Assembly: GCA_021163445.1 (NCBI GenBank)
Contig: JAGGWR010000183.1
Span: 1-34,522 of the forward strand
From: Candidatus Tharpella aukensis
GTDB lineage: Bacteria; Desulfobacterota; Anaeroferrophillalia; Anaeroferrophillales; Tharpellaceae
Length of the DNA: 34,522 nucleotides
Direction: 5' to 3'
Both the position numbers and the translations under genes were made by a program. Shown here piece by piece: positions 2,852-4,609 of this stretch; the stretch's first letter is position 1, and each line of letters begins with the position of its first letter. The notes under the pieces are model-generated. The model saw only the letters and a program-made list of their open reading frames with translations. It was not told the DNA's origin and ran no database searches.

Positions 2852-4492
2852 ATGAGTGAGAAATTAAAGTTTGCTCCATTGGTCAGGGTTAGCACAGAAA
2901 AACAAGCTGAAAAAGGCTCTTCTTTGGAAAAACAAAAAGAAATGATCATTGAGTCTGTCAAACGAATGGGTGGAATCATTCCTGAACATTGTTGGGAATA
3001 TTCGGGGCAAGAGCACGCCACACCTGACAATGAACGGAATAAGCTAGATAAATTACTTAGAGATTCCAAAAAAGGTTCATTTGATGCCGTTATTGTATGT
3101 GACATTTCAAGGTGGTCTAGGGACAACCGAAAAAGCAAAGATGGCTTAGACATCCTGAGGAAAAACGATATCAAATTCTTTGTTACCAGCTTGGAGTATG
3201 ACCTGCTCAACCCTGAACACTGTTTCATATTGGGAATGTCAGCAGAAATTGGTGAATTACAGTCAAAAACACAATCTTTGAAATCAATAAACTCAAGAAT
3301 TCTTAGGGCTGATAAAGGGCGTCCTGCTACTGGAAAGCTTCCTTACGGAAGAACTTTTGACAAAGATAGTAATGAGTGGGGAGTGGATGAATTTAAGAAA
3401 AAAGAAATAGAGGGTGCAGCTAAAGATTATTTGTCTGGACAAAAAATGTCAGATATTGCTGTTAAGCTAAATATGAATCACAGTAATCTTCATAAAATTC
3501 TTACCAAAAGGTCTGGAAATATTTGGGTGCAGCGATTCAGATCAATACCATTAAAAATTGACCGAGAGGTTTCAACGGTAGTTCCTTCTTTGCTTCCACA
3601 GAATACCATTGAAAAAATACTTGAAAGAGCCAAAGGGAACAAAACATATTGCAGGGGAATGCGTAAAAACGATTACTTACTATCCGGGATGATATTTTGC
3701 AAACATTGTAAAACTAGTCTTTTTGGACAAACCAACCCGAGTGGAAAATCATATTATCGGCACAAAACAAAAAAAGGAAATGTCTGCCCTGTCTCTGGCT
3801 ATTTACCAGCTGAAAGCATTGAACAAGCAATAATGGTTACAGTCTTTGCTACTATTGGTGATCCTGTTGGGCTCGAAAAGGCTATTAATGCAGCGTTGCC
3901 CGATGTTAATGAATACAATGAACTGATTGAAAAGAAAAAATCAATCCAGAAAAAACTTATTGAGGCCAGTAAAGCTAAGTATAGAATTCTTGATATGGTT
4001 GAAAGTGGGGCTTTGACAACTGATGACGTAAAAGAGCGTATGGATAAGAACCGGGAAAGGACTAATCTACTAACGATGGACTTGGAAAATATCAATATTC
4101 AGCTAGACAACAGACCATCTACGCAAGAAATAGAAAATGCTACTTCAAAAATTCGTAAGTTGTTTATCAAAAAAAGAGGTGATTTGACGAAAAGAATACT
4201 TGAATCAACTCACGAAGGTTATCAGAGGCTTTGTGAGATGGGCTTTGAAGAAAAAAGAGAACTTTTGGAAACTATTTTTACGGGGGTAAATAATGATGGA
4301 AGCAGAAGAGGCGTCTACGTAAAGAAGAATCAAGATAAGTGGGAATATGAAGTTGTCGGTTCCTTTGAAATCAATGATGACGTAGGCACTTTGCCTCTTA
4401 AGCCTCAACGTGCAAGGGAAATGTTTGATATACTGGATGATTCTATCAATCCATTTACTGGTGAAGTATCAAATATGCATTGCGTTGATTAG
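2852..4492 (+). CDS. Large serine recombinase (resolvase + recombinase + zinc-ribbon/coiled-coil domains)
   Basis: VRVSTEKQ (catalytic Ser), [30 protein letters not shown] (Zn ribbon) and a following coiled coil. ATG 2852 is preceded by GAGG/AAGG. Confidence 0.95.
4466..4492. other. Hybrid attachment site (attL or attR) of the large serine recombinase
   Basis: yjbQ similarity stops after the Ile codon at 4472-4474, next to the ATGCAT palindrome at 4475-4480. The exact crossover dinucleotide cannot be fixed from one junction. Confidence 0.65.
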
Positions 4493-4609
4493 GCATAAGC
4501 CCTCTTTAATGCCGCTTTTATTAAGACATTGATCGATTTCAGGTGTGATATTTATGAAATCCCGGCGCTTATTGGTTTCAAACCAAAGTTCTTGACGGAA
4601 ACTTTTCAT
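4469..4609 (-). pseudogene. yjbQ: 5' fragment (46 codons) of yjbQ / UPF0047 secondary thiamine-phosphate synthase family gene, interrupted by the element
   Basis: Not in the ORF track. AGGAG RBS, then [50 protein letters not shown]. This matches the YjbQ N-terminus, which normally continues NAMHITASVFIND. Confidence 0.85.

Follow-up and report, generated by a model that had tools for sequence, protein, structure and literature searches.

A large serine recombinase element in yjbQ, its probable insertion codon, and a related clade whose recombinase frame crosses the attachment core

In the window, by which we mean the whole stretch of 34,522 nucleotides analysed here, the gene yjbQ is interrupted by the end of a gene for a large serine recombinase (LSR). 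The window is the entire contig C144 of the Candidatus Tharpella aukensis assembly, which comprises 363 contigs and is 91% complete. From comparison with related loci we think it likely that the window up to position 4486 is the right end of an LSR element integrated at the AA of codon Asn42 of yjbQ, that this site is a target used across a clade of related elements, and that the reading frame of the LSR is ended by host DNA. The features needed to follow the argument are these.

1 to 2851, no strand: presumed remainder of the element; the contig starts here and attL is not reached
1740 to 2348, minus strand: short tyrosine recombinase of 202 aa, probably cargo of the element (Pfam Phage_integrase, E 4e-20)
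2852 to 4492, plus strand: LSR gene, 546 aa (open reading frame, Pfam Resolvase and Zn_ribbon_recom matches, alignment with homologues)
4465 to 4484, plus strand: putative element-side att half-site (P arm) inside the last LSR codons (register common to related loci)
4485 to 4486, no strand: probable crossover dinucleotide, TT on the plus strand and AA of yjbQ Asn42 (homology to four genomes in which both junctions are present)
4487 to 4609, minus strand: native 5' part of the host yjbQ, codons 1-41 (87% identity to orthologues, flank alignment)
4610 to 6319, plus strand: host flank, made up of the region upstream of yjbQ and of a divergent DUF4139 gene at 4838-6319 (Pfam DUF4139, synteny)

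The minus-strand ORF at 4609-4469 encodes 46 amino acids that end in NAMHI before the stop codon. It matches intact YjbQ/UPF0047 proteins (138 aa) from genomes of the same genus with 87% identity over 46/46 residues and E-values down to 2e-25, and at E<=1 it was matched in 38 of the 41 genomes searched. Ten full-length orthologues (138-139 aa), together with one that is cut by a contig end, read on from NAMHI into TASVFINDD. DNA likeness to the intact yjbQ genes of relatives stops at 4472/4473, and 6 of the 7 loci compared matched the window contig. On the plus strand, positions 4472-4492 are read as N M H C V D and stop at the end of the LSR gene, and in reverse complement they give I N A M H I; by these alignments the antisense match of yjbQ to the LSR end is far beyond chance. 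The upstream flank (window 6195-4473) aligns to the yjbQ locus of a relative (L008), and in relative G004 the DUF4139 gene adjoins an intact yjbQ, with 76% DNA identity to the window flank over 1.7 kb. The UPF0047 profile matches the fragment over profile positions 1-26 with a score of 19 bits, below the Pfam cut-off of 27, which would fit the view that the antisense overlap arose by chance and that the short ORF is no remnant of yjbQ. The identity over the complete fragment, the synteny around it and the like architecture of 27/42 related loci described below speak against that view, and we regard it as refuted, with a probability near nil. The preliminary description of this DNA had read the ORF as the first 46 aa of YjbQ and the final LSR codons as the antisense of yjbQ codons, and both readings hold.

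The LSR is 546 aa long, compared with about 450-700 aa expected of large serine recombinases. It contains a match to the Resolvase domain (PF00239, E 5e-15) and to the zinc ribbon Zn_ribbon_recom (PF13408, E 7e-10), and the Pfam scan at E<=0.01 gave no match to the Recombinase domain PF07508. We found 446 homologues, the best of which, other than the protein itself, have 48-50% identity, and the LSR can be aligned over its whole length with this large family. The N-terminus aligns with those of the homologues and R12-V13-S14-T15-E16 are invariant in 20 aligned sequences. Thus, a catalytic resolvase-type domain with its serine nucleophile is present (PF00239, R12-E16), and the family alignment indicates that the frame is full length. 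The LSR is presumably active. A directionality factor was not recognised.

When contigs were scanned with the single LSR protein, none of 61 candidate stretches was confirmed as a close relative. Scanning one genome per species with an alignment as the query gave 47 loci. Of these, L054 and L059-L062 matched only in part and were set aside, which left 42 loci with a near-full LSR. The 3' ends of these LSR genes were compared with a UPF0047 HMM built from 16 proteins. A piece of UPF0047 abuts the 3' end of the LSR gene in 27 of the 42 loci, and it does so in two ways. Eleven of the 42 loci have an antisense 5' piece of yjbQ as in the window (class A) and 16 of the 42 have a sense-strand 3' piece that starts from ...LVNAMHITAS (class B). 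The possibility raised in the preliminary description that homologous LSRs also end in antisense yjbQ is therefore realised in class A, whereas class B ends in the sense 3' piece and the other 15 of the 42 loci have no UPF0047 piece at this place. Because of these 15 loci, the clade is not exclusively directed at yjbQ. Scanning them for palindromes near the LSR end gave best scores of 11-13/22, compared with 11-14 for integrated controls; with scores no better than those of the controls, these loci gave no sign of a free attP form. The hosts of the clade belong to the Thermodesulfobacteriota, Bacteroidota, Spirochaetota, Planctomycetota, Lentisphaerota, Bacillota and other groups.

The LSRs of class B have a tail, K-C-H-A-H-Y...V-Y-Q, that recurs in many homologues and corresponds to the +1-frame reading of yjbQ V-N-A-M-H-I-T-A-S-V-F-I-N-D, with the TGA stop lying inside N-D. 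By this correspondence the K-C-H-A-H-Y tail is an imprint of the target gene and not a protein motif. Minus-strand ORFs downstream of class B LSRs were considered as genes and rejected, since 6/6 had no Pfam match and they are shadows of the sense-strand 3' part of yjbQ. Two loci of the clade had unusual arrangements. At L027:4001-8329 the LSR frame continues without a stop for about 930 residues and contains a motif like that of N6-adenine methyltransferases (..NPPY..); apparently the LSR at this locus reads through in frame into another target gene. At G044:C9:526321-529285 (L070, L075 and L082), partial 3' pieces of yjbQ covering residues 39-138, 38-94 and 94-138 lie in series beside one element. 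This points to insertions that hit one yjbQ copy after another, or to the decay of such copies.

The position of the crossover was read from related elements of which both ends are present. Five long contigs were searched for both halves of yjbQ and the junctions were analysed in four of them, the fifth (G044) being left out. In these four genomes the two junctions have nothing in common but the AA of the L-V-N Asn codon, which is flanked by mismatches on either side, and rejoining the halves at AA gave an in-frame ...EGLxLVNAMHITASVF in 4/4 genomes. The rejoined attP is partly palindromic in all four, with matches at 10-21 of 26 arm positions. Thus, the att sites of the four related elements have imperfect dyad symmetry round a 2-nt AA crossover; for the window, this comparison concerns the LSR-side junction only. 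In the window, as in 10 of the 11 class A loci, the core comes after GLxL[VCI] codons.

The window sequence by itself would allow a crossover at any position within 4472-4486. The element arms of related loci in both orientations contain an ATATG-like word followed by 7 nt and the core, and the host B' arm contains an ATATG-like word at an equal distance from the core. In the window, ATATG occupies 4473-4477, and after a gap of 7 nt comes TT at 4485-4486. Because the P arm fits the family register exactly, we place the window crossover at 4485-4486, and we consider this placement by homology very probable. Identity to intact yjbQ extends 13 nt past this core, down to 4472. With the core so placed, these 13 nt are the element's own half-site and not host DNA; an element half-site would be expected to resemble the host half-site because one protein binds both. 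The final 8 nt of the LSR gene (core, GAT and TAG) then lie at or past the crossover, so that host DNA would contribute only the D codon and the stop to the LSR end, the N-M-H-C codons would come from the P arm of the element, and the truncated yjbQ ORF runs on to 4469 through P-arm sequence. The protein tails of close homologues fit an element-borne arm, since P0003-P0005 keep (N/D)-M-H and P0002 has G-M-R at this place before the tails diverge (a comparison of protein tails only). The preliminary description had put the junction at about 4472 and had assigned all codons of about 4472-4492 to the host yjbQ. Its view that an att crossover lies inside the 3' end of the LSR gene is retained, but the family register moves the crossover to 4485-4486 and gives N-M-H-C to the P arm.

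The LSR frame runs across the core in both classes. The core lies inside the frame at 12 class A junctions (window included) and at the 14 class B junctions that were measured. The distance from the core to the LSR stop codon is 2-144 nt in the window and the 11 class A loci. In class B it is 21-42 nt, measured at the 14 loci whose frame is intact and whose core could be anchored, a count that leaves out L044 (broken LSR frame) and L046 (core not anchored). Four of the 11 class A loci have as their stop a TGA made up of the second T of the core and two host bases. Because the frame crosses the core, the tails of the integrated and excised forms must differ. Tails encoded by the host in the integrated state comprise 0 to about 47 residues, and the excised forms predicted for four genomes have 17-27 different residues after the junction codon. 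Among the four, the predicted excised tails are alike only between the two close relatives. The variability of the tails argues against selection on the tail, and from these comparisons the change of tail is most likely an incidental product of an attP packed tightly against the gene. These results bear out the earlier claim that the C-terminus of the LSR differs between integrated and excised states, with the frame crossing the core clade-wide and the tails predicted for four genomes. They lend no support to the further suggestion that this C-terminus could be a state or directionality switch, given that the predicted excised tails are mostly unlike one another and the integrated ones so variable in length.

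The two classes differ in the orientation of the element relative to the target. Read in the sense of the LSR gene, class A cores are TT and class B cores are AA, as would be expected if an asymmetric core sets the direction of insertion. On a quick maximum-likelihood tree classes A and B are intermixed, and its well-supported branches require a minimum of 3 changes for class A and of 6 for class B. The sister elements L033 and L039 are inserted in opposite orientations and have TA at the core column; their target is the canonical V-Y-T-P-H-T-T-A type of UPF0047. A palindromic TA core is a plausible route for flips of orientation. A more far-reaching view would be that, in a clade with the attP core in its own last codons, the C-terminus and transcription entering from the 3' side report integration and bias the direction of recombination without or beside a directionality factor, with the TA-core elements L033 and L039 as intermediates in orientation flips; we think this unlikely.

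We propose that the LSR inserted its element at the AA of Asn42, within the conserved L-V-N-A-M-H-I-T-A-S of yjbQ. Members of the clade use this one UPF0047 codon column as attB in either orientation. Their attP core lies within the 3' coding end of the LSR gene, with the last element codons doubling as a half-site for the enzyme. In the integrated state host DNA gives the stop codon and the 0 to about 47 residues before it, which in the window would be D and the stop. Upon excision, the LSR frame would enter the other end of the element and acquire a different, longer tail.

Some of the related elements bring a copy of the gene that they interrupt. A complete 138-aa yjbQ ends 10-30 nt before the LSR start in 8 of the 42 loci, a count in which two further loci had too little upstream DNA to show a copy. 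In G041, G042 and G044 the replacement yjbQ lies inside the element, between the displaced halves of the host gene. Carrying replacement copies, these elements compensate for the broken gene. The preliminary description had reasoned that a replacement 5' half keeping yjbQ intact would do away with a yjbQ switch. This applies in part to the 8 relatives with an intact copy but not to the window element, in which there is no replacement yjbQ.

The four related elements that are complete span about 8-11 kb. Their cargo comprises DUF2213, a weak terminase-like match, HNH and an HTH protein, and in 3/4 of them a short tyrosine recombinase. Homologues of the window tyrosine recombinase (22-62% identity) were found upstream of the LSR in 12 of the 42 loci, always on the strand of the LSR, whereas the window gene is on the opposite strand. 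An invertible segment round this gene was considered and rejected, the inverted repeats being weak only (70-88% complementarity). In the window genome a second copy of the tyrosine recombinase has its two parts at opposite ends of contig C245 (6.65 kb), so this contig may be circular or have a repeat as its boundary. The presumed cargo of the window also encodes two repeat proteins, at 2-799 and 1024-1662. One has about five ..KWGxNYEMVxYCIKNQ.. units and no confident Pfam family, and the other is a MORN-repeat protein.

The remainder of the host yjbQ was sought in the whole assembly. Using an intact orthologue as the query, tblastn found only the 5' fragment and two short 3' relics. One, at C68:1364-1441, corresponds to yjbQ residues 113-138, and its DNA likeness to relatives extends 50-100 nt beyond the stop codon. 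The other, at C146:5186-5251, corresponds to residues 108-129. Both relics are sharply bounded. Because they overlap, at least two copies of yjbQ were once present in the lineage, and one of the relics may derive from an element-borne copy like those in the 8 related elements. In the 363 contigs, tblastn found no copy of residues 47-107, a degenerate pattern for codons 44-55 had no match and no UPF0047 match exceeded the Pfam cut-off. The left arm was sought as an exact palindromic counterpart of the right arm, allowing <=4 mismatches; this gave only scattered matches with 3-4 mismatches, none of them beside yjbQ-like sequence. The attL site is unassembled or lost, with the contig beginning inside the presumed element, and because attL is missing the attP and attB of the window element cannot be rebuilt. 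The reconstruction of att sites envisaged in the preliminary description thus succeeded for the four relatives, where it gave yjbQ in frame, and not for the window element.

These observations leave room for an immobilised element, in which a deletion would have taken attL and yjbQ codons 43 to about 112 and left an intact LSR gene stranded, so that neither excision nor restoration of yjbQ would be possible. In keeping with such a deletion, codons 47-107 occur nowhere in the assembly, and the sole yjbQ 3' end that keeps its native downstream similarity (C68:1370-1518) begins sharply at about codon 113-115, after unrelated DNA that encodes an ABC ATPase, in an orientation that would fit the far side of the insertion. 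However, absence is weak evidence in an assembly of 363 contigs that is 91% complete and in which the contig breaks inside the element. The C146 relic also points to more than one former yjbQ copy, so the C68 end is perhaps not the native one, and the LSR frame is of full length. We therefore treat immobilisation as possible but doubtful.

The reading given in the preliminary description was that the crossover lies at about 4472, that N-M-H-C-V-D is all host sequence and that the element is a reversible interrupter of yjbQ whose LSR tail acts as a state or directionality switch. It draws on the identity to intact yjbQ that reaches 4472/4473, on the four relatives in which rejoining at the core restores yjbQ in frame, and on the predicted difference between integrated and excised tails. 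Yet the crossover of the relatives is the Asn AA and the window P arm lies in that register, the (N/D)-M-H and G-M-R tails of P0002-P0005 fit an arm borne by the element, and the two properties of the tails noted above, a host-coded length of 0 to about 47 residues and mostly dissimilar excised forms, do not suit a switch; nor was a directionality factor identified. The yjbQ 3' half, attL, attP and a restored attB are all absent from the assembly and from assembled Logan contigs of four public runs. Among these contigs, one in run X1 bridges 4126-5317 in the integrated form, which is not independent support because X1 may be the source sample of the window. The contigs of the four runs had no joint or loose end at 4472-4486, in assemblies of a kind that drop rare excised forms. 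Of the two target-gene halves that would flank a reversible interrupter, only the 5' one was found beside the element in the incomplete 363-contig assembly. With the TASVFIND half absent from the assembly and the public contigs in the integrated form only, a reversible yjbQ toggle is unsupported, and we consider the reading as a whole quite improbable. We thus prefer insertion at the AA of Asn42, with a frame that is ended by the host.

Elements of serine recombinases are known inside genes, such as Listeria A118 in comK, Bacillus subtilis SPbeta (SprA) in spsM and skin (SpoIVCA) in sigK. As in these cases, the LSR here inserts its element within a protein-coding gene at a short specific site, and precise excision would restore the gene, in frame in the four relatives. 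The elements described here differ in that the target is yjbQ/UPF0047 and is common to a clade found across many phyla, in that both orientations occur with no sign of developmental control, in that a complete spare copy of the target comes with some members, and in that the attP core lies inside the recombinase frame. This last arrangement resembles that of Myxococcus phage Mx8 (IntP/IntX), in which attP is inside the integrase coding sequence and integration makes a new 3' end of int, the altered form of this tyrosine recombinase being reported to have changed properties (PMC6070905). The crossover within the integrase reading frame is the shared trait, found here at class A and class B loci. 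By contrast, the enzyme here is a serine recombinase and only its extreme tail is altered, a predicted change that is not known to affect its function. In archaeal integrases of the SSV type the recombination site is also within the integrase ORF (PMC7253208). There, integration splits int into two inactive parts, whereas the gene here stays whole except for its tail.

The replacement copies recall tRNA/tmRNA genomic islands, which regenerate their target (Islander report, PMC4383910). In a similar way, 8 of the 42 related elements leave the host an intact yjbQ. They do so, unlike such islands, with a second, entire gene that lies a little upstream of the LSR and not with a junction fragment, and the window element has none. 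In Vibrio cholerae, yjbQ is named as a recurrent hotspot for the insertion of mobile elements in passages of 10.1101/2024.07.25.605194; in contrast to what we describe, these passages mention no serine recombinase, no site within the gene and no overlap with an integrase frame. A literature search, with subscription journals mostly outside its coverage, found no description of a yjbQ-directed LSR clade. It also found no natural LSR with a frame crossing the attP core among records represented in part by titles and abstract openings. The main text and 6 supplements of PMC10083194 contain no mention of UPF0047, yjbQ or PF01894.

By the comparisons made here, this is a broad family of yjbQ-specific LSRs that insert in both orientations and take their stop codon from the host, with a spare copy of the target in some members. 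It defines a natural serine-integrase family that uses as attB a short, conserved part of a gene with a wide distribution, and the yjbQ attB could be a ready-made landing site for genome engineering in anaerobes that are hard to handle. It also forms a serine-recombinase counterpart to the Mx8 arrangement. The explanation of an apparently conserved C-terminal integrase motif as an out-of-frame reading of the target calls for caution in domain annotation.

Some further observations concern the host flank. A sigma-70-type scan for a yjbQ promoter reading antisense into the LSR gene gave 10 sites where 7.3 were expected, none of them on the minus strand at 4610-4840, and such a promoter was dropped from consideration for lack of a site there. 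Beyond the DUF4139 gene, the gene at window 6522-7673 strongly matches the domain found at the N-terminus of tRNA-queuosine alpha-mannosyltransferase (PF12038, E 2e-55). Window 6319-6552 is a short high-copy repeat; in all four runs its summed contig depth is 760-4300, compared with about 0-16 for the flanks. The repeat has numerous joints and loose ends and is of MITE or REP type in appearance. A stretch of about 114 nt of the related locus L006 (2960-3073) matches about 28 contigs of the window genome.
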